Shown here: positions 9,631-39,904 of the stretch, piece by piece
How positions within the stretch are numbered: position 1 is the first letter of the stretch
Layout: each line of letters opens with the position of its first letter
Origin: Patescibacteria group bacterium
GTDB taxonomy: Bacteria; Patescibacteriota; UBA1384; 2-12-FULL-50-11; DASWYB01
DNA length: 39,904 nucleotides
Reading direction: 5' to 3'
Assembly: GCA_041486955.1 (NCBI GenBank)
Contig: JBGPML010000002.1
Location: 1-39,904, forward strand
Notes under the pieces: model-generated
Told to the model about the DNA's origin: nothing
Databases searched by the model: none
The model's input: only the letters and a program-made list of their open reading frames with translations
Program-made: the position numbers and the translations under genes

Positions 9631-9912
9631 ATGAACTCCTTAAGCCCTGAAGAAATTGGACACCTCGCCACGCTTAGTCGTCTGTCCTTAACCGAGGAAG
9701 AATCGACACATTTTGCTGAACAGTTAGGCTCAATTCTTGAGTACGCGTCTCATTTGCCTGAGATGGATGTGACGCCCGACCCAAGTCATCTTCGGGTAGA
9801 GGAGGATATCGCCCAACCTTGTGACAACCCGCATGATTTACTCCGCAATGCCATCGCTCTGGAAAACGGCTACGTTAAAGTACCGGCGATATTGGATAAA
9901 AGTGAATCATGA
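9631..9912 (+). CDS. gatC: Asp/Glu-tRNA amidotransferase subunit C
   Basis: HLATLSRLSLTEEE...L..IL.Y pattern, ~93 aa, 4-nt overlap with gatA. Confidence 0.9.
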   Translation: MNSLSPEEIGHLATLSRLSLTEEESTHFAEQLGSILEYASHLPEMDVTPDPSHLRVEEDIAQPCDNPHDLLRNAIALENGYVKVPAILDKSES

Positions 9913-11309
9913 GTGATGTGACGAAAATTTTAGATGAGCTAGCCGCTGGATCGGTAACCAGCGAATCATTGGTGATCCAATGCTTTCAAACGATCAAGTC
10001 AAAAAATGACGATATTTTTGCTTTTGTCCGAACCTATGAAGACGAAGCGATGGCAGCGGCAAAAGCCAGCGATGCTCGACGTAATGAGGGGAAACCACTC
10101 AGCCGAATTGATGGGCTGCCAATAGCGATTAAAGACAATTTTTCTTATCAAGATCATGTTACGAGCTCTGGTAGCAATATATTAAAAAACTATGAAGCAC
10201 CGTTTGATGCGACAGTAGTTGCTAAACTTAAAGAAGCGGGAGCCGACATTATTGGCCAAACCAATATGGACGAATTCGCCATGGGCTCAAGTACGGAAAA
10301 TAGCGCTTTTGGAGTTACCAAGAATCCCTTTGACGCAACGCGAGTTGCTGGTGGCTCAAGTGGCGGGGCCGCGGCCGCCGTAGCAACCGACATGGCTCCA
10401 CTCAGCTTTGGTAGCGACACCGGCGGGTCCATTCGTCAGCCGGCCGCGTTTTGCGGTGTTGTTGGGTTAAAACCAACCTATGGTGCGGTCAGCCGTTATG
10501 GCTTACATGCGTTAGCCTCTTCCCTCGATCAAATTGGCCCGTTAGCTTCGTCGGTCGATGGAGTTGAGATTGGTTATGAGGCAATACAAGGGTTTGATCC
10601 ACTTGATAGTACCTCGAAGAAAGCTGAATCAGTACCTGTCAAAGAGCACTATACAATAGGTGTGCCGAAGCAGTTCATGGCCGAGGGAACTGATTCGAGG
10701 ATTCTTAACGCGCTCAATAAAACCTTGGATAAGCTGGAAGCCGCCGGGCATACCATCAAACGTGATATTGATCTGCAGATACTCGAGCAATCAGTGGCAA
10801 TTTACTATATTATTCTGCCGGCTGAAGCCAGTGCCAACCTGGCCCGTTATGATGGTATTCGCTTCGGCTCGCACGGAAATGATGTTATTGACTCGAGAAG
10901 CCAGGGATTTGGCCCAGAAGTAAAACGACGAATAATGTTAGGAACTTACGCCTTATCGGCTGGCTATGCTGACAAATTTTACAAGCGAGCTCAATCGGCG
11001 CGGGCAAAATTAACTCAAGAGCTACTCGAAGTCCTTGAGTCAGTTGATGTATTGATCGGGCCGGTTGTGCCGGAATTGCCGTTCAAAATTGGCGCCAAGC
11101 AGAGCGATCCGTTAGCTATGTATCTGTCGGACATTTATACTATTCCGGTCAATTTAGCCGGCTTACCTGGTTTAACGATGCCTGTTACAACCACCGAAGA
11201 AGACGGCGTACAACTGCCAATCGCATTACAAATCATCGGCCGTCCCTGGAGTGAAAAACAACTCTTCTCGGTCGGTCGTATCATAGAGCATAATAAAGGA
11301 GCTTCATGA
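9909..11309 (+). CDS. gatA: Asp/Glu-tRNA amidotransferase subunit A
   Basis: Amidase signature GGSSGGAAAAVA and GSDTGGSIRQPAAFCGVVGLKPTYG. Confidence 0.95.
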   Translation: MSDVTKILDELAAGSVTSESLVIQCFQTIKSKNDDIFAFVRTYEDEAMAAAKASDARRNEGKPLSRIDGLPIAIKDNFSYQDHVTSSGSNILKNYEAPFDATVVAKLKEAGADIIGQTNMDEFAMGSSTENSAFGVTKNPFDATRVAGGSSGGAAAAVATDMAPLSFGSDTGGSIRQPAAFCGVVGLKPTYGAVSRYGLHALASSLDQIGPLASSVDGVEIGYEAIQGFDPLDSTSKKAESVPVKEHYTIGVPKQFMAEGTDSRILNALNKTLDKLEAAGHTIKRDIDLQILEQSVAIYYIILPAEASANLARYDGIRFGSHGNDVIDSRSQGFGPEVKRRIMLGTYALSAGYADKFYKRAQSARAKLTQELLEVLESVDVLIGPVVPELPFKIGAKQSDPLAMYLSDIYTIPVNLAGLPGLTMPVTTTEEDGVQLPIALQIIGRPWSEKQLFSVGRIIEHNKGAS

Positions 11310-11914
11310 GTCGAGGGATAGTAAACCAATTCGTTGCTTTAATTGTTTTAATCGGCGTATTAATCGTAGGAGCAAAACTTATGGGAAATAATAGTAATTC
11401 AACCGCTAAAACGGCTCCCGCCGCTAATAGTTCGCCAGCGCCGGGTGATAACGTGGTTATTGCCACCGATAAGGGTGATATTCATCTTGAATTGTACACA
11501 AAAGATGCGCCTAAAACCGTCGATAATTTTGAAAAATTGGCCGATCGAGGCTACTACAACGGGGTTATTTTTCACCGGGTGATTAAGGACTTTATGATTC
11601 AAACCGGCGATCCAACAGGTACGGGGCGTGGGGGCGATAGTGCCAATGGGGGCGATTTTGCTGACGAAATTAACAGCCATAAGATTGAAGTTGGCACAGT
11701 GGCTATGGCTAACAGAGGACCAAACACCAATGGATCACAATTCTTCATCGTCACCGAGCAATCCCAACCAAGTCTCGATGGGCATTATACGGTTTTTGGC
11801 CATGTGACGGACGGAATAGATGTGGTCCGCGAAATTGCGGCTGTGCCAACCGATTCTAACGATAAACCAACTGAAGACGTTAAGATGAAAACAGTTACAA
11901 TCGAAAAGAAATAA
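11306..11914 (+). CDS. cyclophilin-type peptidyl-prolyl cis-trans isomerase with N-terminal membrane anchor
   Basis: FHRVIKDFMIQTGDPTGTGRGG and MANRGPNTNGSQFFI blocks. N-terminal TM. Overlaps the gatA stop. Confidence 0.9.
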   Translation: MSRGIVNQFVALIVLIGVLIVGAKLMGNNSNSTAKTAPAANSSPAPGDNVVIATDKGDIHLELYTKDAPKTVDNFEKLADRGYYNGVIFHRVIKDFMIQTGDPTGTGRGGDSANGGDFADEINSHKIEVGTVAMANRGPNTNGSQFFIVTEQSQPSLDGHYTVFGHVTDGIDVVREIAAVPTDSNDKPTEDVKMKTVTIEKK

Positions 11915-11922
11915 GTGAGCAT

Positions 11923-12408
11923 ATGAGCCAGCAGTATGGAAGCTATAAGAAGCCGAAGCAGGACCCGATTGAAGTTCGGATTGTTTTAGGTTTATTCCGT
12001 GGTTTATGGTGGCTCATTACCTGGCCTTTTCGTGGATTTAGCCTGGGACAAATGAAAGGTCGAAAAGCGACATCCCTCGACACGCAATCGGTTGCAAAAC
12101 GTTGGTCGGATATTCAAACTTCTATTGGTCTCGGTGGCACGACCCACTTCGGTTCGGCTGTTGTCGCGGCTGACAAACTATTGGACCATGTTTTAAAACA
12201 GAAGGGCTATGCTGGAGAGACCATGGGTGAGCGGCTTAAAGCGTCCCAAGATGATGTTTCGCCTGCGGTGTATCATAATACCTGGCAGGCTCATAAGCTC
12301 CGTAATCAGCTCGTTCATGAAATCGAGAGTGAGGTTTTGAGTTATCAGGCCAAAGAGGCGATTTCGAGTTATGAACAAATGCTGAAGGAGTTGGGAGCAT
12401 TAAGATGA
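11923..12408 (+). CDS. hypothetical protein with hydrophobic N-terminus and HEPN-like (DUF4145-like) C-terminal region
   Basis: Rx4H motif in AHKLRNQLVHE within a helical C-terminal half. Translationally coupled to gatB (overlap 12405-12408). Family assignment is from memory. Confidence 0.55.
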   Translation: MSQQYGSYKKPKQDPIEVRIVLGLFRGLWWLITWPFRGFSLGQMKGRKATSLDTQSVAKRWSDIQTSIGLGGTTHFGSAVVAADKLLDHVLKQKGYAGETMGERLKASQDDVSPAVYHNTWQAHKLRNQLVHEIESEVLSYQAKEAISSYEQMLKELGALR

Positions 12409-13829
12409 GTGAATACATACCAATCATTGGCCTGGAGATTCATGCCGAACTCAAAACAAACTCAAAACTCTTTTGTCGTTGTCCCAATACCTCGAGCGAT
12501 TTAAATACTCCTCCGAACACGGCCATTTGTCCGGTTTGTGTCGGATTACCCGGGGCTTTACCAGTCTTGAATAAGCAGGCAGTCGCTTCAACGATAAAAC
12601 TTGGCCGATCACTCGGGTCGACGATTCCGCCAACCACCAAATGGGATCGTAAAAATTACTTTTATCCAGATTTACCTAAAGGCTATCAAATCAGCCAGTA
12701 CGATCAGCCATTATGCCTGGGTGGAATGCTTTCTTGGTACGACCGAACAGGCACCGAACATTCCGTTGCCTTGACACGCATTCATCTGGAAGAAGACACG
12801 GGAAAACTGGTTCATCCCGAACAAAAACCGTACTCGCTGATTGATTATAACCGGTCGAGTGTGCCACTTTTAGAACTGGTGACGGAACCAGTCATTTCTT
12901 CGGCGGAAGAAGCCCGTCAGTTTGCTGAAGAGTATCAACACCACTTGCGTGAATTAGGTATTGCCGAGGCGAGCATGGAAAAAGGTCAAATGCGTTGTGA
13001 GGCTAATATCTCGGTTGTGACTGAGTCTGAGGCAGCCGATCCCGGGCGACGGTTAAGTGGGACTAAAATTGAAGTAAAAAACCTCAATTCTTTTCGATCA
13101 CTCGAACGAGCGATTAATTTTGAGATAAAGCGTCAATCGGAAGCTTTGAATCAAGAGGATCGGTTACGTCAAGAGACGCGGGGTTGGCGTGAGGTCAAAG
13201 GAGAAACCTACAGTATGCGCGCCAAAGAGACGGCTGACGATTATCGCTATTTCCCCGAGCCTGATCTTGGACAGCTTGATTTGGATCGGGCGGAAAAGAA
13301 CGATCAAGACGGAGTGTCCCGACAAGCGGTTATAGCCCAGCTGCTTAAGGCTCAAGCTAATCCGAATTTTGTTCATATCGTTACTGATGATCCCAGGCGC
13401 TGGAGTTATATAAAACTACTCCTCAGCGACCCGAACATACACGATGAAAGTATAGCTTTATCGGTGCAATGGTTGAGTCAAGACCCGAACATTGTTCGTT
13501 TTGAACCGCAAGAAATAGTGGCAGTCATGACTGAATTATCTGCTGGGAACATTCGTACCGCGGCTCTCAAAGCCGCTCTTGCCAGTGCTGATCGGGGAGG
13601 GCTAAAGGAAGCTCTTGATCAATCACAATCTGGAGCGAGCGATATTGACTTAGGATCAGTTGTTCGTTCGGTTTTAGCCGAACATACTTCGGAGGTTGTT
13701 CGGTATAGATCTGGCGAGGTTCAATTGTTCGGGTTCTTCGTGGGGAATGTTCGTAAAATTATCGGGTACAAGGCTGATCCATCTGATATTACCGAGATCC
13801 TTAAACGTCAACTCGATCAGGCTAAGTAA
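12405..13829 (+). CDS. gatB: Asp/Glu-tRNA amidotransferase subunit B
   Basis: IGLEIHAELKT.SKLFC, CPVCVGLPGALPVLN, RIHLEEDTGK, DYNRS.VPLLE, MRCEANISV blocks. Confidence 0.95.
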   Translation: MSEYIPIIGLEIHAELKTNSKLFCRCPNTSSDLNTPPNTAICPVCVGLPGALPVLNKQAVASTIKLGRSLGSTIPPTTKWDRKNYFYPDLPKGYQISQYDQPLCLGGMLSWYDRTGTEHSVALTRIHLEEDTGKLVHPEQKPYSLIDYNRSSVPLLELVTEPVISSAEEARQFAEEYQHHLRELGIAEASMEKGQMRCEANISVVTESEAADPGRRLSGTKIEVKNLNSFRSLERAINFEIKRQSEALNQEDRLRQETRGWREVKGETYSMRAKETADDYRYFPEPDLGQLDLDRAEKNDQDGVSRQAVIAQLLKAQANPNFVHIVTDDPRRWSYIKLLLSDPNIHDESIALSVQWLSQDPNIVRFEPQEIVAVMTELSAGNIRTAALKAALASADRGGLKEALDQSQSGASDIDLGSVVRSVLAEHTSEVVRYRSGEVQLFGFFVGNVRKIIGYKADPSDITEILKRQLDQAK

Positions 13830-25563: not shown

Positions 25564-26790
25564 ATGCGTTTATCGACCTATAATTTTAAGACCCGACGAG
25601 AGACTCCCCAAGATGCTGATTCAGCCAACGCAGCTCTATTAAGTCGTGGGCGATTTATCGAGAGAGGGATGACCGGGGTGTACAACTTTTTGCCTATGGG
25701 CTGGGTCGTAATGGAAAATATTATGTCGATCATCCGTAAGCACATGAATAGCACCGGTGCCTACGAAGGCCGCTTTACGACCTTGCAAGACAAACAGTTG
25801 TGGGATCGGGCTGGCCGTTGGGAGTCGGGTAAAGACATCATGTACCAATTTAAAGACCACGGAGAGAGAGAAGTTGGCCTTGGATTCACACATGAAGAGG
25901 TATTTGTTGATCTATTATCACGACAACCGCTATCATATGCTGATTTTCCGTATAAAGTATATCAATTTCAAACCAAGTTTCGGTTTGAAGCGAGACCAAA
26001 GTCTGGTTTGCTCCGCGGACGAGAATTTCTGATGAAAGATCTCTATAGCGCTCATGCCACCGACGAAGAGTTGAAAACGTATTACGATCAAGTCAAAGAG
26101 GCCTATCATACTATTTTTACCGAGCTAGGGATTCCGGTCATCGAAACGCTCGCATCAGGCGGCGTATTTACGGATAATTTTAGTCATGAGTTTCAAACCA
26201 TCTCACCGATTGGTGAGGATGAAGTTTACATCTGCGATCAATGTAAAATGGGCATAAATAAAGAGGTTATAGAAAAAGTCGGGCACAAGTGTCCTAATTG
26301 CGGCGGCACTCAATTTTCCATTGAAAAGACGATAGAAGTCGGCAATACATTTGATTTAGGCACGTATTATAGCGAAAAAATGGCGGTAACCTATGCCGAC
26401 TCAGAAGACGTACAAAAGCCGTTCTGGCTCGCCAGTTACGGTATTGGTATAAGTCGGGCGATGGGGACCATAGTTGAGCTGCATCATGACGACAAGGGCA
26501 TTATTTGGCCTGAATCTGTCGCACCCGCGTCGGTTCACCTCGTTGGATTGACCGAACGAGCCGAAGCAGTGTATCAACAGCTCATTGAAGCTGGAATTTT
26601 GGTGATATATGATGACCGAGCGTTAAGTGCTGGAGAAAAATTTGCCGATGCTGATTTGCTAGGCATGCCAGTACGAATAACCGTTGGCGCCAAAACTCCT
26701 GAAGGTCAGGTAGAATGGAAAAATCGTGATGGTGAAAGATCCGATAATATGACGCTCGAAACCGCCATAAATAAATTGAAGGAGGATTAA
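25564..26790 (+). CDS. proS: prolyl-tRNA synthetase, bacterial-type core lacking the INS editing domain, with a Cys4 ribbon in its place
   Basis: YQFQTKFRFEARPKSGLLRGREFLMKDLYS (motif 2), SHEFQ, EVGNTFDLGTYYS, SYGIGISR (motif 3), C-terminal anticodon-binding domain. CDQC...CPNC at residues ~224-246. Confidence 0.9.
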   Translation: MRLSTYNFKTRRETPQDADSANAALLSRGRFIERGMTGVYNFLPMGWVVMENIMSIIRKHMNSTGAYEGRFTTLQDKQLWDRAGRWESGKDIMYQFKDHGEREVGLGFTHEEVFVDLLSRQPLSYADFPYKVYQFQTKFRFEARPKSGLLRGREFLMKDLYSAHATDEELKTYYDQVKEAYHTIFTELGIPVIETLASGGVFTDNFSHEFQTISPIGEDEVYICDQCKMGINKEVIEKVGHKCPNCGGTQFSIEKTIEVGNTFDLGTYYSEKMAVTYADSEDVQKPFWLASYGIGISRAMGTIVELHHDDKGIIWPESVAPASVHLVGLTERAEAVYQQLIEAGILVIYDDRALSAGEKFADADLLGMPVRITVGAKTPEGQVEWKNRDGERSDNMTLETAINKLKED

Positions 26791-35402: not shown

Positions 35403-35527
35403 TGAGTCGTTTTTGAAAATAGCGACTCAGTGCAATATAAATAATTATTTTCAAACGGCCCTCCCTAGCTTGCTGCGAAGGGGGGTAACAAAGAACTCAA
35501 ACCTCCTACCGGAGGGTCCATAGTTCT

Positions 35528-37075
<1,548 letters not shown>

Positions 37076-37154
37076 TAAAAGGAATAGTCTCGAACATTTT
37101 TTGTGCGAGACCAGGTCGAACCTGCGTTGAAAGACGTATGGTTTAGCACGTTAG

Positions 37155-37171
37155 TTTCTTACAACCGCACA
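37155..37171 (+). other. 3' strand of the 16S processing stem
   Basis: tttcttacaaccgcaca is complementary to 35386-35402. Confidence 0.7.
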
Positions 37172-37205
37172 GTCTCTGTTAAAAACTCTTGGTTTGGCCA
37201 ATAAC

Positions 37206-37273
37206 GGCGTTAGTGTTTCCGAGTCTCCTTCAACGTACCTTAAGTACGTCTCAGTACGATTCTCAACACCGCC
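37206..37273. repeat. palindromic element copy C4, just 3' of the 16S processing stem
   Basis: ggcgttagtgtttccgagtctccttcaacgtaccttaagtacgtctcagtacgattctcaacaccgcc aligns with the C2 core. A T6 run follows at 37295-37300. Confidence 0.5.
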
Positions 37274-37488
37274 TTGTTCTTGTCTCAAACTAAGAGTTTT
37301 TTATTTGGATTTACCTCAAAGCAATGACATATTGGGGCACCGGATAACTGCATTTTTTGTTCTCATTCCAAATATCTGTGCTTTGAAGGTTTTATATAGT
37401 TCCAATTTGTCGTTAGCTATTGCCCAATTTGTTGGGGTTTTTTATAATGAATAAAATCCCATACGACCAAATGAGGAGGATGCCGATC

Positions 37489-37689
37489 ATGAGAGTTTGG
37501 GCAAAAGCAGAGAGTGGAAATGGCCGGACCCGATGCGAAGAGCTTCAGCTTCGGAATCCGCACGACACCGACGCCGTTCAAGAGCAGGTTCGGAACCACT
37601 TCGAGGTCTACGGCCCAGAATTCACGGCTGGATGTGCCTTCAGGTTAGAGGGGCTTCCGGGCAGTATTCCTATGGTGTTCTCCCGGTAA
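37489..37689 (+). CDS. hypothetical 66-aa protein in GC-rich insert
   Basis: GAGGAGG lies 9 nt before ATG 37489. No family recognised. GC-rich DNA inflates ORF length, so the call is weak. Confidence 0.3.
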   Translation: MRVWAKAESGNGRTRCEELQLRNPHDTDAVQEQVRNHFEVYGPEFTAGCAFRLEGLPGSIPMVFSR

Positions 37690-37794
37690 ACCGGGATCTG
37701 CGAGTCGCTGACATTTTTCAAGAGGTCGTCGCGCATTCGCGGCAAGGACCAGGCGGGACATCTCCTTGAATAGGGGGAGCTCTGTCTCGCTCCC

Positions 37795-37868
37795 GCCTCC
37801 GTAGCGCAGTGGGATAGCGCGCTTGGGGCAAATCCAAGAGGTCGGCGGTTCGAGTCCGTCCGGAGGCC
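37795..37868 (+). tRNA. tRNA-like gene, non-canonical anticodon loop GGCAAAU (anticodon CAA if read conventionally, G at position 33), short variable arm, no encoded CCA
   Basis: Hand-folded cloverleaf: gcctccg/cggaggc acceptor, gcgc D-stem, cttgg/ccaag anticodon stem, ggcgg-ttcgagt-ccgtc T-arm, discriminator C. Confidence 0.55.
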
Positions 37869-37893
37869 TTGGGGATACGGGGTAGTGGAAATA

Positions 37894-37924
37894 GCGGTCG
37901 GGCAGAGCCCGGCCGCATTTTTTT
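37894..37924 (+). terminator. strong rho-independent terminator after the first tRNA-like gene
   Basis: gcggtcggg-cagag-cccggccgc, then a, then T7. Confidence 0.75.
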
Positions 37925-37989
37925 ATTGCTAAATAATATATTTTTGAGTAACAATAGTAACAGAGTCATCTTCGAGGAAGGAGGGAAAG

Positions 37990-38238
37990 ATGCCAACTCT
38001 GACACCAGCAAGAGAGCTGGAAGAATCACCGACCACAACGCTCCCCGACTTACCGGTAGTGCCAGGTTGGGAGAACCTGGTCGATGAAGCAACGCGAATG
38101 TGTCGACTCATCGATCAACATCTCGACTTCGAGGAGCGGGGCCGGCGGCTGCTGCCCGGGCAGCGCTTCATGCCGATTGGACTGTGCCCGCAACAGCGGG
38201 TGGGAATGACCACAGATCTTAAGGCCTTATGTGGGTAG
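37990..38238 (+). CDS. hypothetical 82-aa protein in GC-rich insert
   Basis: SD AGGAAGGAGGG 4 nt before the ATG. Followed by an 8-bp hairpin ggcgcaac-tcga-gttgcgcc. No family recognised. Confidence 0.35.
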   Translation: MPTLTPARELEESPTTTLPDLPVVPGWENLVDEATRMCRLIDQHLDFEERGRRLLPGQRFMPIGLCPQQRVGMTTDLKALCG

Positions 38239-38265
38239 TGAACGGCGCAACTCGAGTTGCGCCGT

Positions 38266-38338
38266 ACCCCCGTAGCTCAATTGGCAGAGCATTGGGCCGT
38301 TAACCCAAAGGTTGGTGGTTCGAATCCACCCGGGGGTG
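38266..38338 (+). tRNA. tRNA-Asn(GUU)-like gene with C instead of U at position 33, no encoded CCA
   Basis: Hand-folded cloverleaf: acccccg/cgggggt acceptor, gctc-aattggca-gagc D-arm, ttggg-CCGTTAA-cccaa anticodon arm, ggtgg-ttcgaat-ccacc T-arm, discriminator G. Confidence 0.6.
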
Positions 38339-38396
38339 TTTCAGCTTTTCCGGCGGCCGCCCTGGCGCCATTTGACACTTGAAGGGGGTGAAGCAT

Positions 38397-38420
38397 AAGC
38401 CAGCTCAGTGAGCTGGCTTT
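38397..38420 (+). terminator. 9-bp hairpin aagccagct-cagtg-agctggctt (weak T tail)
   Basis: Read directly, at the right edge of the GC-rich insert. Confidence 0.4.
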
Positions 38421-38424
38421 AGAC

Positions 38425-38453
38425 TTGTGAAAAGGTGTAATATTTAGTACAAT
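38425..38453 (+). promoter_or_regulatory. possible promoter TTGTGA-17-TACAAT upstream of tRNA-Ile
   Basis: Read directly, ~165 nt upstream of the tRNA. Confidence 0.3.
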
Positions 38454-38616
38454 TTACAGAGTAATAACGTTCGTTTGTTCTCCTGGGGCATATCTCGCAA
38501 GGGGATTCCCTTCGGTCATCCCACAGGGACTTCCTCTAGTCGTAGCTTATTTGTCCGCTGGCTGGAGGAAGAGCACGTCGACTGTAAATTAAAACTTCAT
38601 TCATAATTCTTCCTGG

Positions 38617-38693
38617 GGGCGTATAGCTCAGCTGGTTAGAGCGCGTCACTGATAATGACGAGGTCCATGGTTCGAGTCCATGTACGCCCACCA
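38617..38693 (+). tRNA. tRNA-Ile (anticodon GAU), CCA encoded
   Basis: gggcgta/tacgccc acceptor, cgtca-CTGATAA-tgacg anticodon arm, catgg-ttcgagt-ccatg T-arm. Flanked by complementary ttcttcctgg / ccaggaagga. Confidence 0.95.
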
Positions 38694-38733
38694 GGAAGGA
38701 ATAAGAAAAAGAGTTTTAATTTCCCGCTACGCG

Positions 38734-38790
38734 GATAAGGACGGGGTCCATGGTCCGCCAACTGGCGGAGAGTCCATGTACACCCACTGG
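38734..38790 (+). pseudogene. degenerate duplicate of the tRNA-Ile 3' half (anticodon loop to 3' end) with a ~15-nt hairpin inserted in the T-loop
   Basis: gataaGgacgGggtccatggt[ccgccaactggcgga]gagtccatgtacAcccacTgg versus the tRNA's gataatgacgaggtccatggttcgagtccatgtacgcccaccagg. Flank similarity continues to ~38803. Confidence 0.5.
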
Positions 38791-38815
38791 GAGAACATAG
38801 GAAAGAATTTAATTG

Positions 38816-39259
38816 ATGAAACCAGGCTCAGATTATATTGGTATTGGAGCAGGAGGAGCTATTGTGAATGAGAATGGCGAGCTCTTTTTAGCGCTACGGA
38901 GCAAAAATGTCCGAAATGAACCTGAATTTTGGGAATTTCCGGGTGGTGGTGTGGAATTTGGCGAAACGCTTGAATCAGCCCTAAAGCGGGAAATGAAAGA
39001 AGAGTATAGGGTTGATATTGAAATTATCGAACTCATCGGCGTGAGCGACTCGGTTTTGCCAAAAGAGAAACAGCACTGGGTATCACCAGGATATTTATGT
39101 AAAATAGTTAAGGGTGACCCTCAAATAGTTGAGCCTGAAAAATGCGAGGAAATCGGCTGGTTTTCTTTGTCAGAAATAGAAAATCTTCCATTAAATACGC
39201 CCACTCGATTTGAGTTAATGATTATTAAAAAAAGATACCCCGAAGGAATCAAAATATGA
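38816..39259 (+). CDS. NUDIX hydrolase
   Basis: Nudix box GGGVEFGETLESALKREMKEEYRVD (Gx5Ex7REUxEExGU). The start could be TTG 38813. Confidence 0.85.
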   Translation: MKPGSDYIGIGAGGAIVNENGELFLALRSKNVRNEPEFWEFPGGGVEFGETLESALKREMKEEYRVDIEIIELIGVSDSVLPKEKQHWVSPGYLCKIVKGDPQIVEPEKCEEIGWFSLSEIENLPLNTPTRFELMIIKKRYPEGIKI

Positions 39260-39759
39260 TTGCTACTTCTCACGTAATAATTGGCGGCGCTGTCGGTACT
39301 GCCGTTGGTGTTGCCACAGGAAGTCTCACAGCCGCGCTTGTGGCCGGGGTGGTGTCTCATTTAGTCTGCGACCTCATTCCCCATATTGATCATCCCCCCG
39401 CTCCATTTATTGATGGCGAATTGCAATGGACAAAAGGAGTTTATATTTTTGCGATTACCGACAGTGCGATTGCCGGACTGGTAACCCTGTTTTTCTGGTT
39501 TTCTTTTTTTAGTTTTCCGTTAATCACGCCATTTATTATGGGGGCAATTGGCGGATATTTGCCTGACTTTGTTGATAACGTGCCATTTTGGAATACAAAA
39601 ACTCGTCAGTTACCTGGCTTGCGCGAGTTTCATGAACTTCATGACGATATTCACGCGATCTGGAAACCATATTTCCCCATGCCGAAAAACTGGTTAATCG
39701 GGATTTCAACCCAGATTACTCTGGCTGGTGCCAGTTTGCTTTATCTGCTTAAGCCTTGA
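39256..39759 (+). CDS. membrane protein, YdjM/DUF457-like putative metal-dependent hydrolase
   Basis: SH..IGG near the N-terminus, H..CDLIPHIDHP, several TM helices. Overlaps the NUDIX stop (ATGA). Family assignment from memory. Confidence 0.55.
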   Translation: MIATSHVIIGGAVGTAVGVATGSLTAALVAGVVSHLVCDLIPHIDHPPAPFIDGELQWTKGVYIFAITDSAIAGLVTLFFWFSFFSFPLITPFIMGAIGGYLPDFVDNVPFWNTKTRQLPGLREFHELHDDIHAIWKPYFPMPKNWLIGISTQITLAGASLLYLLKP

Positions 39760-39784
39760 AAAAACGTCTGAATTTAGGTATAAT
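39756..39784 (+). promoter_or_regulatory. sigma70-like promoter TTGAAA-17-TATAAT upstream of tRNA-Ala
   Basis: Read directly. The -35 overlaps the stop codon of the preceding CDS. Confidence 0.55.
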
Positions 39785-39828
39785 TAGTCTGTTTTAGACG
39801 GGTTAAATAATCCGTCTGATAGCATTAT

Positions 39829-39904
39829 GGGCCATTAGCTCAGTTGGTAGAGCAACTCCTTTGCAAGGAGAAGGTCCGCGGTTCGAATCCGCGATGGTCC
39901 ACCA
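39829..39904 (+). tRNA. tRNA-Ala (anticodon UGC), CCA encoded
   Basis: G3:U70 pair in acceptor gggccat/atggtcc, loop TTTGCAA, cgcgg-ttcgaat-ccgcg T-arm. Ends at the window edge. Confidence 0.95.

Follow-up and report, generated by a model that had tools for sequence, protein, structure and literature searches.

A GC-rich, apparently acquired block in a Patescibacteria group genome carries two intact tRNA genes that lack U33

U33 is regarded as all but invariant, and tRNAs that lack it tend to be written off as pseudogenes. In the eukaryotic tRNA-Ser(CAG) of Candida (CTG clade), G33 directly precedes a Leu anticodon, and the body is not that of tRNA-Leu but plainly of Ser type, with a long variable arm and G73; G33 is reported to lower both decoding and leucylation (PMC5041475, PMC1991585, PMC11415595). 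The tRNA-ProX of Streptomyces and Kitasatospora, which is co-encoded with ProRSx, combines an anticodon-body misfit with A33, A34, A15-A48 and G21 (PMC11415595). C33 initiator tRNAs, both eukaryotic and bacterial, have a CC-NNN-AA loop frame, three G-C pairs at 29-31/39-41, a weak or mismatched 1:72 pair, the anticodon CAU, A73 and A11-U24 (PMC5041475). Some phages encode supernumerary, foreign tRNAs whose anticodon-loop mutations evade tRNA-targeting defences (PMC10264068, in which position 33 is unmentioned). C33 also occurs in tRNA-Asn(GUU) genes of Actinomycetota and of viral tRNA clusters, which carry U1-A72.

The locus described here lies in a window of 39,904 nucleotides, the whole stretch of DNA analysed, from a Patescibacteria group bacterium (contig JBGPML010000002.1, assembly GCA_041486955.1). 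A GC-rich block in this window carries two tRNA genes, tRNA1 with G33 and tRNA2 with C33 (Table 1). tRNA1 resembles the Candida tRNA in that G33 directly precedes a Leu anticodon and the body is not tRNA-Leu, a likeness of design and not of homology; it is a type-I molecule with anticodon CAA, C73 and no identity set, whereas the Candida tRNA is plainly a Ser tRNA. With tRNA-ProX it has in common a putative high-GC bacterial origin, the absence of U33 and the anticodon-body misfit, but it carries G33, C34, G15-C48 and A21, and the block holds no synthetase. By analogy, the G33/A33 dual-identity (mistranslating) tRNAs appear to be its closest counterparts. tRNA2 matches the C33 tRNA-Asn(GUU) genes in its Asn-type D arm, the loop C32 C33 GUU A37 A38 and G73; it differs from them in A1-U72 (A1xC72 in one strain), in the three G-C pairs that close its anticodon stem and in following a small ORF in a foreign block. 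It shares with the C33 initiators the loop frame, the three G-C pairs and a weak or mismatched 1:72 pair, but it has GUU, G73, C11-G24 and an Asn-type body; among the initiator criteria of CAU, a 1x72 mismatch and A11-U24, only the mismatch is found, in one strain, alongside the three G-C pairs. Both block tRNAs are like the defence-evading phage tRNAs in being putatively supernumerary and foreign and in departing from the norm only in the anticodon loop, but the block has no phage context. The G33/A33 precedents, the A1-U72 pair of tRNA2 and the contrast between a conserved ORF2 and an orphan ORF1 were left out of the preliminary description of this DNA.

Table 1. Features of the block and its margins (window positions)
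Feature	Position	Strand	Details
Promoter-like site TTGCCC-17-TATAAT	37420-37448	+	10/12 matches; in host-type AT-rich DNA, upstream of ORF1
ORF1, 66 aa	37489-37689	+	SD GGAGG at 37475-37479, 9 nt upstream
GC-rich hairpin	37752-37791	+	From a fold of 37740-37880; ends 3 nt before tRNA1
tRNA1	37795-37868	+	Type-I cloverleaf; ARAGORN tRNA-Leu(caa); Rfam RF00005, 52.7 bits
Intrinsic terminator of unit 1	37894-37924	+	Stem 37894-37916, 10 bp with 9 G-C, then T7; z = -4.85
AT-rich spacer separating the two GC-rich units	37917-37989	+	29% GC; holds the ORF2 SD GGAGGG at 37980-37985
ORF2, 82 aa	37990-38238	+	SD GGAGGG, 4 nt upstream
Perfect 12-bp palindromic hairpin	38242-38265	+	Between the ORF2 stop and the first base of tRNA2
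tRNA2	38265/38266-38338/38339	+	ARAGORN tRNA-Asn(gtt); Rfam RF00005, 70.7 bits
11-bp hairpin with weak U tract	38397-38419	+	Probable 3' boundary of unit 2 and the block

The block spans window positions 37456-38420 and contains 56-68% G+C, as compared to 39-43% in its flanks, which bears out the earlier description of a GC-rich insert. By part, the G+C fraction is 0.56 in the ORF1 region, 0.60 in the spacer between ORF1 and tRNA1, 0.68 in tRNA1 and 0.59 in both ORF2 and tRNA2; outside, it is 0.39 in the upstream spacer (37075-37455) and 0.43 at 38421-38616. The third codon positions of ORF2 are likewise GC-rich (GC3 of 0.61 versus 0.34-0.44 in nine host genes). Two units follow one layout, in which an SD-led small ORF is succeeded by a hairpin, a CCA-less tRNA gene and a terminator or terminal hairpin. 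The ORFs and hairpins that had been proposed were reproduced, as was the strong terminator ascribed to the first tRNA. A small hairpin with a T-run (37423-37436) overlaps the promoter-like site upstream of ORF1, and promoter prediction in the AT-rich spacer gave no convincing promoter for unit 2. The block had been placed in an rRNA spacer. It does lie downstream of the 16S gene; however, no 23S gene is found within about 8 kb after the site, which is therefore not a classical 16S-23S spacer. Among plasmid-borne full-length 16S genes, the best matches to this 16S reach about 76% identity. A partial duplicate of tRNA-Ile is located close to the block. Neither the block nor its immediate surroundings contain a phage gene or an integrase. 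The block also lacks a synthetase gene, the nearest being that of a 408-aa ProRS 11 kb upstream in host-type DNA, and the host DNA encodes GatA and GatB.

Three independent assemblies contain the block, each with at most 3 differences from the window, and an assembly chimera, raised earlier as a possible refutation, is thereby ruled out. GCA_041499095.1 covers both junctions, GCA_041496685.1 has it from shortly before tRNA1 to past the downstream junction, and a Logan assembly contig reaches from about 600 nt upstream of the block to beyond tRNA2. All three strain differences in ORF2 are synonymous, fall at third positions and lie inside its most conserved motif, a pattern suggesting that ORF2 is under purifying selection. 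One strain has three substitutions in tRNA2 (U17, A26 and terminal position 72) that spare the internal stems; in GCA_041496685.1 the 1:72 pair is broken (A1xC72). Because SNPs are tightly clustered everywhere in these assemblies, the cluster in tRNA2 was rejected as a sign of either selection or decay.

The two ORFs differ in their histories. ORF2 is a real gene, a member of a conserved family of about 88 aa whose alignment has 39 invariant columns. Its homologues fall into 16 clusters (58-71% identity), come exclusively from soil-type contigs with a GC content of 63-69% and are chromosomal, adjoining IscA-like and LipA genes. None was found in 185,579 genomes or in viral contigs. One of the soil-type contigs carries a neighbouring gene labelled Armatimonadota; the 85-aa family that neighbours the ORF2 homologues has 102 clusters, one of them with that label. 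Searches of Pfam, PHROG and NCBIfam returned no domain match for ORF2; its AlphaFold model consists of two helices (pLDDT 72) and has no match in the PDB at E below 2. ORF1, by comparison, has no homologue among 5.8 billion proteins. It is an orphan and may be what is left, in degraded form, of the 85-aa gene found ahead of ORF2 homologues at other loci. Profile comparison with this syntenic family (hhalign) gave a motif match of 13-16 residues only, at a probability of 1.75%, and a tblastn search for a frameshifted remnant found nothing convincing. At the homologous loci elsewhere, no tRNA was found near the ORF1-like and ORF2 genes. The confinement of the ORF2 family to high-GC soil contigs, where no tRNA follows it, indicates that the block was acquired horizontally and is a mosaic. 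The different origin argued earlier from the missing CCA ends gains from this distribution and from the foreign codon composition.

Both tRNA genes fold into cloverleaves in which all stems are paired and U8, A14, G18G19, A21, G53-C61, T54-A58 and C56 are present, and both exceed the RF00005 gathering score of 29. The report of two good cloverleaves without U33 was thus upheld by ARAGORN and Rfam. Neither gene shows the broken stems, lost tertiary nucleotides or low score of a pseudogene, and an earlier suggestion that they are decaying does not fit. They depart from the canonical elongator at position 33. A search for anticodon-arm/T-arm patterns with a nucleotide other than T at 33 gave 2 matches in the window versus 0 in 100 shuffles, and no alternative register places U at this position in either gene. 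Neither encodes CCA (TTGGGG follows tRNA1 and TTTCAG follows tRNA2), whereas the neighbouring tRNA-Ile and tRNA-Ala both end in CACCA, as had been noted. Minus-strand tRNAs were considered and rejected; the reverse complements have U33 but no T-loop or D-loop signatures, and their match to an antisense-tRNA family is below threshold. Complementarity of the anticodon arms to nearby sequences was dismissed as noise, the pairs concerned being among 34 of similar kind.

The anticodon loop of tRNA1 is GGCAAAT (G32 G33 C34 A35 A36 A37 U38) between 5-bp stems. The molecule has G1-C72, C73, G15-C48, A21 and a variable loop of 5 nt; it thus lacks both the long variable arm of a type II tRNA-Leu(CAA), as had been pointed out, and A73. 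The body does not disclose another identity. Comparison with 384 collected tRNAs was ambiguous (57 matches to Val and Met, 56 to Thr, 55 to Pro, Arg, Ile and Asn), as were BLAST searches against phages, plasmids and E. coli, in which the best full-length match was 75% to a phage tRNA-Thr. The body also lacks an anticodon-independent identity set, having neither G3.U70 nor a long variable arm nor an encoded G-1, and the D arm (GCGC/GCGC) presumably resembles that of tRNA-Pro. We found no relative of tRNA1 in 185,579 genomes or in viral contigs; its anticodon arm has 14 exact matches in viral contigs, none inside a tRNA, and its loop-plus-T-arm pattern has none there. tRNA1 thus reads as an intact tRNA whose amino-acid identity cannot be recognised from its body, and because it has no relative at all, nothing shows selection on it. 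In the predicted structure, G32.U38 closes the loop and leaves a GCAAA pentaloop. With G33 and a loop closed in this way, tRNA1 should decode UUG poorly, and its role, if any, would be marginal or outside normal translation.

tRNA2 is more readily classified. Its anticodon loop, CCGTTAA (C32 C33 G34 U35 U36 A37 A38), lies between 5-bp stems with GGG/CCC at the anticodon-stem base. Its GUU anticodon and its discriminator G73, the latter already remarked on, are those of tRNA-Asn, and alignment with five tRNA-Asn genes shows an Asn-type body (D arm GCUC/GAGC with C11-G24, 8-nt D loop without 20A, variable loop AGGUU). Asn is the nearest isotype, and tRNA2 is 80-86% identical to phage tRNA-Asn. 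The first pair is atypical, being A1-U72 versus U1-A72 in the five aligned genes. U1-A72 is a determinant for GatCAB amidation, and A1-U72 was not among the variants assayed there (PMC1635274). tRNA2 departs from this determinant of the GatCAB route both in the window and in GCA_041496685.1.

The preliminary description named regulatory or decoy mimics and pseudogenes among the possible readings of these genes. Absence of U33 does not by itself point to either, as C33 recurs in tRNA genes that are conserved across species. In two Actinomycetota genomes, tRNA-Asn(GUU) with loop CCGTTAA occupies a syntenic chromosomal site; these two genes, the only relatives checked for it, encode no CCA. Among viral contigs, 14 carry the same tRNA-Asn loop, which in 13 of these belongs to a tRNA cluster, and at least 120 carry its U33 counterpart. 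C33 is kept in tRNA-Val(GAC) across five Salimicrobium species and eight Lachnospiraceae genomes, and in about 20 bacterial initiator tRNA genes. These counts come from a pattern-restricted search and are not true frequencies per isotype. The recurrence suggests that C33 is compatible with function. Given these genes, the likeliest reading of tRNA2 is as a usable Asn tRNA that belongs to a rare, naturally recurring C33 subtype, despite A1-U72; with GUU and G73, tRNA2 is probably chargeable and able to read AAC and AAU.

The explanation we favour, to which we give about an even chance, is that 37456-38420 was acquired horizontally from a high-GC bacterium and became fixed in the species as two small transcription units, with tRNA2 a C33 tRNA-Asn and tRNA1 intact. 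Each tRNA would be cotranscribed with its ORF. A cut by RNase P at the tRNA 5' end would free the tRNA and leave the ORF mRNA with a protective 3' hairpin, and CCA would be added post-transcriptionally. We infer the expression, processing, charging and decoding of both tRNAs from their sequences. Against this explanation stand the atypical A1-U72 of tRNA2 in a host with GatA and GatB, the lack of any relative of tRNA1 and the want of a good predicted promoter for unit 2. Because homologous loci have no tRNA, the linkage of ORF and tRNA is confined to this species and may have arisen by accident. The tRNA-like structures might, for that matter, serve as elements of mRNA processing or stability (RNase P punctuation, 3' tRNA-like ends) and not as decoders, with loss of U33 being neutral. 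The architecture is present twice, an ORF and a stable hairpin immediately precede each tRNA, and the 27 nt from the ORF2 stop to tRNA2 consist entirely of hairpin with no predicted promoter. Yet ORF2 homologues manage without a tRNA, and tRNA2 retains Asn features (GUU, G73, the Asn-type D arm) that a processing signal would not need; we regard this reading as quite improbable. It is rather unlikely that the tRNA genes are inert passengers, brought in with the foreign DNA, unused by the host (unexpressed, uncharged or ribosome-excluded) and not yet decayed. The composition of the block has not ameliorated, which suggests recent arrival, and if the transfer was recent, intact tRNA structure is uninformative about function in this host. 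ORF1 as an orphan or remnant, tRNA1 without relatives, the broken 1:72 pair in the strain with three tRNA2 substitutions and the tRNA-free ORF2 loci are also consistent with disuse. However, both cloverleaves are flawless except at position 33, or 32-33, and inactivation at random would seldom strike one shared position in the two genes while sparing all others; the adjoining ORF2 appears to be under selection, and the tRNA2 substitutions neither touch internal stems nor, given the general clustering of SNPs, signify decay.

A role in mistranslation would make tRNA1, and perhaps tRNA2, a dual-identity and deliberately weak decoder, one that delivers an amino acid other than Leu to UUG with low efficiency because G33 damps decoding. 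Natural mistranslating tRNAs do carry G33 or A33 (PMC11415595, PMC1991585, PMC5041475), tRNA1 has G33 directly before a Leu anticodon and a body that is type I, carries C73 and shows neither LeuRS hallmark, and its soil-type high-GC origin recalls tRNA-ProX. UUG accounts for 0 of the 16 Leu codons of ORF1 and ORF2 versus 16% in host genes, a difference that is not significant (P ~0.06). The probability of this role is nonetheless low. The anticodon-independent identity set, a dedicated synthetase (the host-type ProRS being 11 kb away) and the tRNA-ProX signature (A33, A34, A15-A48, G21) are all absent, and tRNA1 is a single-species orphan. Phage or mobile-element tRNAs had been suggested earlier; that the two genes are such tRNAs, with anticodon-loop changes that shield them against anticodon nucleases, is very improbable. 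Nucleases that cut at 32/33 are known (PMC11724271), phage tRNAs with altered loops escape tRNA-targeting defences (PMC10264068), tRNA clusters of viral contigs repeatedly include C33 tRNA-Asn genes, and the nearby tRNA-Ile duplicate points to past integration events. Direct support is lacking, however, as the block and its surroundings hold no integrase or phage gene, ORF2 relatives are chromosomal (near IscA-like and LipA genes) and absent from viral contigs, and the tRNA1 loop occurs in no viral-contig tRNA. There is an equally slim chance that the block encodes purpose-built non-U33 tRNAs, each forming a unit with a small protein, in which tRNA1 would be a dual-identity tRNA that inserts a non-Leu residue at UUG at a deliberately low rate or acts as an amino-acid donor outside the ribosome, and tRNA2 would combine an Asn anticodon with initiator-like P-site features (weak or mismatched 1:72, three G-C pairs, C33).

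If neither tRNA is used, the locus would amount to no more than a recent transfer into a region downstream of 16S that is prone to rearrangement. Should tRNA1 prove to be charged, bacteria would have a counterpart to the Candida G33 tRNA, and regulated codon ambiguity a new example, acquired horizontally. C33 is stably kept in several bacterial tRNA lineages, including tRNA-Asn, tRNA-Val(GAC) and initiators, and annotation pipelines should therefore keep such genes.

Downstream of the 16S rRNA gene, whose last nucleotide is 37074, come host-type spacer of 39% G+C (37075-37455) and then the block, a GC-rich stretch at 37456-38420 that holds two ORF-hairpin-tRNA units. G+C content along the block is 56% in ORF1, 60% between ORF1 and tRNA1 (anticodon CAA), 68% in tRNA1, 59% in both ORF2 and tRNA2 (anticodon GUU), and 57% from there to 38420, past which it returns to 43%. 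The two units are separated by 73 nt of spacer (37917-37989) in which G+C is just 29%. Past the 16S gene, four tRNAs are called by both ARAGORN and Rfam, two canonical and two odd. The preliminary description had reported two U33-less cloverleaves in GC-rich DNA, each preceded by a small SD-led ORF and a hairpin, with a terminator after the first; all of these elements were recovered, all stems pair, and the jump in composition was measured. As it also stated, CCA is encoded in tRNA-Ile and tRNA-Ala and is absent after both odd genes. Its placement of the block in an rRNA spacer did not hold: the 23S gene is not next and was not found within about 8 kb after the 16S gene. The region has the form of a broken-up rRNA operon, in the window (35527-39904) as in contig L002 (11916-20249), with the order 16S, block, tRNA-Ile, NUDIX hydrolase, membrane protein, tRNA-Ala and further protein genes. 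About 30 nt beyond the real tRNA-Ile gene, its 3' two-thirds recur in degenerate form (38725-38804), a hairpin replacing the T loop, and complementary stretches of about 20-24 nt border tRNA-Ile itself on its two sides (38586-38722). The partial copy and the complementary flanks suggest that this tRNA was once a site of integration or rearrangement. Elsewhere in the window, ProRS (25564-26790) is only 408 aa long and aligns to bacterial-type models in two separate segments, an indication that the editing (INS) domain is missing.

Features of the block and the neighboring canonical tRNA genes
Feature	Position	Remarks
Promoter-like site	upstream of ORF1	prediction
ORF1	37489-37689	66 aa, strong SD
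Hairpin	37752-37791	runs directly into tRNA1
tRNA1	37795-37868	ARAGORN and Rfam
Strong terminator	3' of tRNA1	prediction
ORF2	37990-38238	82 aa, strong SD
Hairpin	38242-38265	runs directly into tRNA2
tRNA2	38266-38338	ARAGORN and Rfam
11-bp hairpin	38397-38419	end of block
tRNA-Ile(GAU)	38617-38693	canonical, CCA encoded (ARAGORN, Rfam)
tRNA-Ala(UGC)	39829-39904	canonical, CCA encoded (ARAGORN, Rfam)

The block was sought elsewhere by exact protein sequence look-up, and three sources were recovered. GCA_041499095.1 carries it with both junctions, the contig of GCA_041496685.1 begins shortly before tRNA1 and spans the downstream junction, and a Logan contig of SRR35968830 has its start about 600 nt ahead of the block and continues beyond tRNA2 into the spacer that follows. 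Each of the three has three differences from the window. With the block recurring in three sources and its junctions spanned, the assembly chimera considered in the preliminary description is ruled out. Two assemblies differ by three third-position synonymous changes, G/C to A/T, all in the best-conserved motif of ORF2; the third (GCA_041496685.1) differs by U17C, A26G and U72C in tRNA2, outside the internal stems. SNPs are tightly clustered all through these assemblies, so the clustering itself is not used as evidence. That all three ORF2 differences are synonymous is modest evidence for purifying selection. If mutation runs from G/C to A/T, as expected in the host, we infer the strain order GCA_041496685.1, window, GCA_041499095.1, under which a C72-to-U change would have restored the A1-U72 pair of tRNA2.

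tRNA1 reads GCCUCCG-UA-GCGC-AGUGGGAUA-GCGC-G-CUUGG-GGCAAAU-CCAAG-AGGUC-GGCGG-UUCGAGU-CCGUC-CGGAGGC-C and tRNA2 reads ACCCCCG-UA-GCUC-AAUUGGCA-GAGC-A-UUGGG-CCGUUAA-CCCAA-AGGUU-GGUGG-UUCGAAU-CCACC-CGGGGGU-G. Their stems are fully paired, and both have U8, A14, G18G19, A21, the 15-48 pair, G53-C61, U54-A58 and C56. tRNA1 has G33 and tRNA2 has C33; shifting the register does not produce U33 in either. Judged by its body and identity elements, tRNA2 is a tRNA-Asn: it has the GUU anticodon, G73, an Asn-type D arm and a variable loop reading AGGUU, and shows 80-86% identity to phage tRNA-Asn. It departs from the Asn type in C33, in three G-C pairs that close the anticodon stem, and in A1-U72, where the alignment shows U1-A72 in the five other tRNA-Asn genes. 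GatA and GatB are encoded by the host, which thus uses tRNA-dependent amidation for Asn and/or Gln; between gatA (9909-11309) and gatB (12405-13829) lie a peptidyl-prolyl isomerase-like ORF (11306-11914) and an unknown ORF (11923-12408). U1-A72 is the determinant for Asp-tRNA-Asn amidation; the authors of that work, whose variants did not include A1-U72, consider that weak pairing may be what counts (PMC1635274). The weak 1:72 pair, GGG/CCC and C33 are hallmarks of initiator tRNAs; however, the GUU anticodon, G73 and C11-G24 do not fit, so this apparent likeness is a lead, not a claim.

A tRNA-Leu identity was rejected for tRNA1 because it has no long arm and carries C73. No anticodon-independent identity set was found in it: G3.U70 is missing, as is the long arm, and C rather than G stands at -1 opposite C73. 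Similarity searches single out no isotype. At minimum energy tRNA1 is predicted to fold as a cloverleaf whose anticodon stem is closed by G32.U38, with a GCAAA pentaloop left over, and this closed loop should further impair codon reading. Candida tRNA-Ser(CAG) likewise has G33 beside a Leu anticodon on a foreign body, and there G33 lowers decoding and leucylation (PMC1991585). tRNA-ProX of soil Actinomycetes, which has A33, is a looser parallel (PMC11415595). tRNA1 lacks the defining features of both and is a so far unique, new variant among U33-less tRNAs whose anticodon mismatches the body.

Eukaryotic initiators with C33 and Candida tRNA-Ser(CAG) with G33 are the classical exceptions to U33 (PMC5041475), and natural mistranslating tRNAs bear G33 or A33 (PMC11415595). 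Scanning with a pattern that fits the anticodon-arm/T-arm segments of both tRNAs and excludes T at position 33 gave hits in more than 120 metagenome contigs and, among 185,579 genomes, in 54 tRNA genes. Of these 54, 21 are C33 initiator tRNAs of bacteria (loop CCCAUAA/C), found in Nocardia, Mycolicibacterium, Micromonospora, Planctomycetota, Acidobacteria, several candidate-phyla lineages and others. Another 23 are C33 tRNA-Val(GAC), conserved in five Salimicrobium species (L146, L151, L155, L180, L194) and eight Lachnospiraceae genomes (among them L157, L169, L171, L174, L189, L191, L193); their loops are UCGACAA or UCGACAU, and they occur in several phyla (also L148, L152, L165 and others). 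Two are tRNA-Asn(GUU) genes without CCA whose loop, CCGUUAA, is identical to that of tRNA2. Both lie at a syntenic site on the chromosome, ahead of the same glycosyltransferase, one in a Thermoleophilia genome, downstream of dnaG and a sigma factor, and the other in an Actinomycetes MAG. A second pair of scans, using an Asn-type D arm and viral contigs, found C33 tRNA-Asn in 14 viral contigs of 40-67% G+C, 13 of them within tRNA clusters; the U33 counterpart occurs in at least 120 viral contigs among the matches listed. From the genome and viral scans, C33 is rare but recurs, and several clades clearly maintain it, and tRNA2 takes its place as a new member of a rare natural C33 tRNA-Asn subtype. 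The preliminary description was right that both tRNAs are non-canonical but overstated the anomaly of C33. The tRNA1 loop GGCAAAU was not found in the genome scan, whose pattern would catch it on this stem, nor in viral contigs on any stem, nor among the tRNAs of those viral contigs in which the tRNA1 arm sequence turns up by chance.

Other unusual tRNAs surfaced in these searches. Genes with G33 or A33 (loops UGAAUAG, UGGAUAG, UGUAUAG, UAAAUAG) occur in Enterococcus dongliensis, E. hailinensis and metagenome contigs (L154, 4416-4488; L161, 6505-6577; L179, 2854-2926; also L063, L084, L085); with Ile-type NAU anticodons and G3.U70 and G2.U71 in the acceptor stem, they could be Ala-identity tRNAs. 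Two contigs from viral genomes of >100 kb (L019, 885-973; L021, 11130-11218) encode a type-II tRNA with a long variable arm, G73 and encoded CCA that shares the tRNA2 anticodon arm, including C33 and GUU; its body looks Ser-like and its anticodon Asn.

Homologues of ORF2 form 16 clusters (58-71% identity, about 88 aa) with 39 invariant columns concentrated in LIDRHLDYEERGRRLLPNERLMPIGLCPEQRV. All lie on short contigs of 63-69% G+C, after an 85-aa gene or paralogue. Where the contig reaches far enough downstream, an IscA-like gene and lipoyl synthase are nearby, immediately beside it in some contigs and roughly 2.5 kb off in one. No tRNA was found at these loci, and pattern-based scans did not find the family in the 185,579 species-representative genomes or in viral contigs. 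The 85-aa family comprises 102 clusters, one from a MAG labelled Armatimonadota (L206). The conserved two-gene locus (85-aa and 86-88-aa proteins) is seen in soil contigs L022, L023, L202 and L203, adjacent or close to IscA-like and LipA genes; only the 85-aa gene accompanies these genes in L204-L206, and L001 has only the ORF2-like gene. ORF1 stands in place of the 85-aa gene and shares with that family only a motif of 13-16 residues; it is an orphan, possibly a remnant of the 85-aa gene. ORF2 is predicted to be a two-helix protein, for which neither a family assignment nor a structural match was found. Because GC3 is 0.61 in ORF2 versus 0.34-0.44 in host genes, ORF2 relatives reside on GC-rich contigs without tRNAs, and ORF1 is an orphan, the block is, on compositional and comparative grounds, foreign and mosaic, as though a terminator, an AT-rich spacer and a pair of tRNA genes had been put into or beside a two-gene locus. 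The interpretation in the preliminary description is partly right, standing as to foreign origin and non-canonical tRNAs, and not as to the degree of the C33 anomaly.

What the units do can be read in several ways. It is rather unlikely that they are inert passengers of a recent transfer. We consider it improbable that tRNA1 is a dual-identity, mistranslating tRNA, and just as improbable that both tRNAs are purely processing or stability elements; a phage origin with evasion of nucleases is slightly less probable still.

We give about an even chance to a horizontally acquired pair of ORF-hairpin-tRNA transcription units. The sequence and the comparisons show the anatomy, the origin and the precedents, whereas expression, processing and charging are inferred. 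Each tRNA would be co-transcribed with its ORF and freed by RNase P, cleavage would leave the ORF mRNA with a 3' hairpin, and CCA would be added later to the freed tRNA. tRNA2 would then be a C33-type Asn tRNA in use by this organism, and tRNA1 a poor decoder whose role may be marginal or non-canonical.
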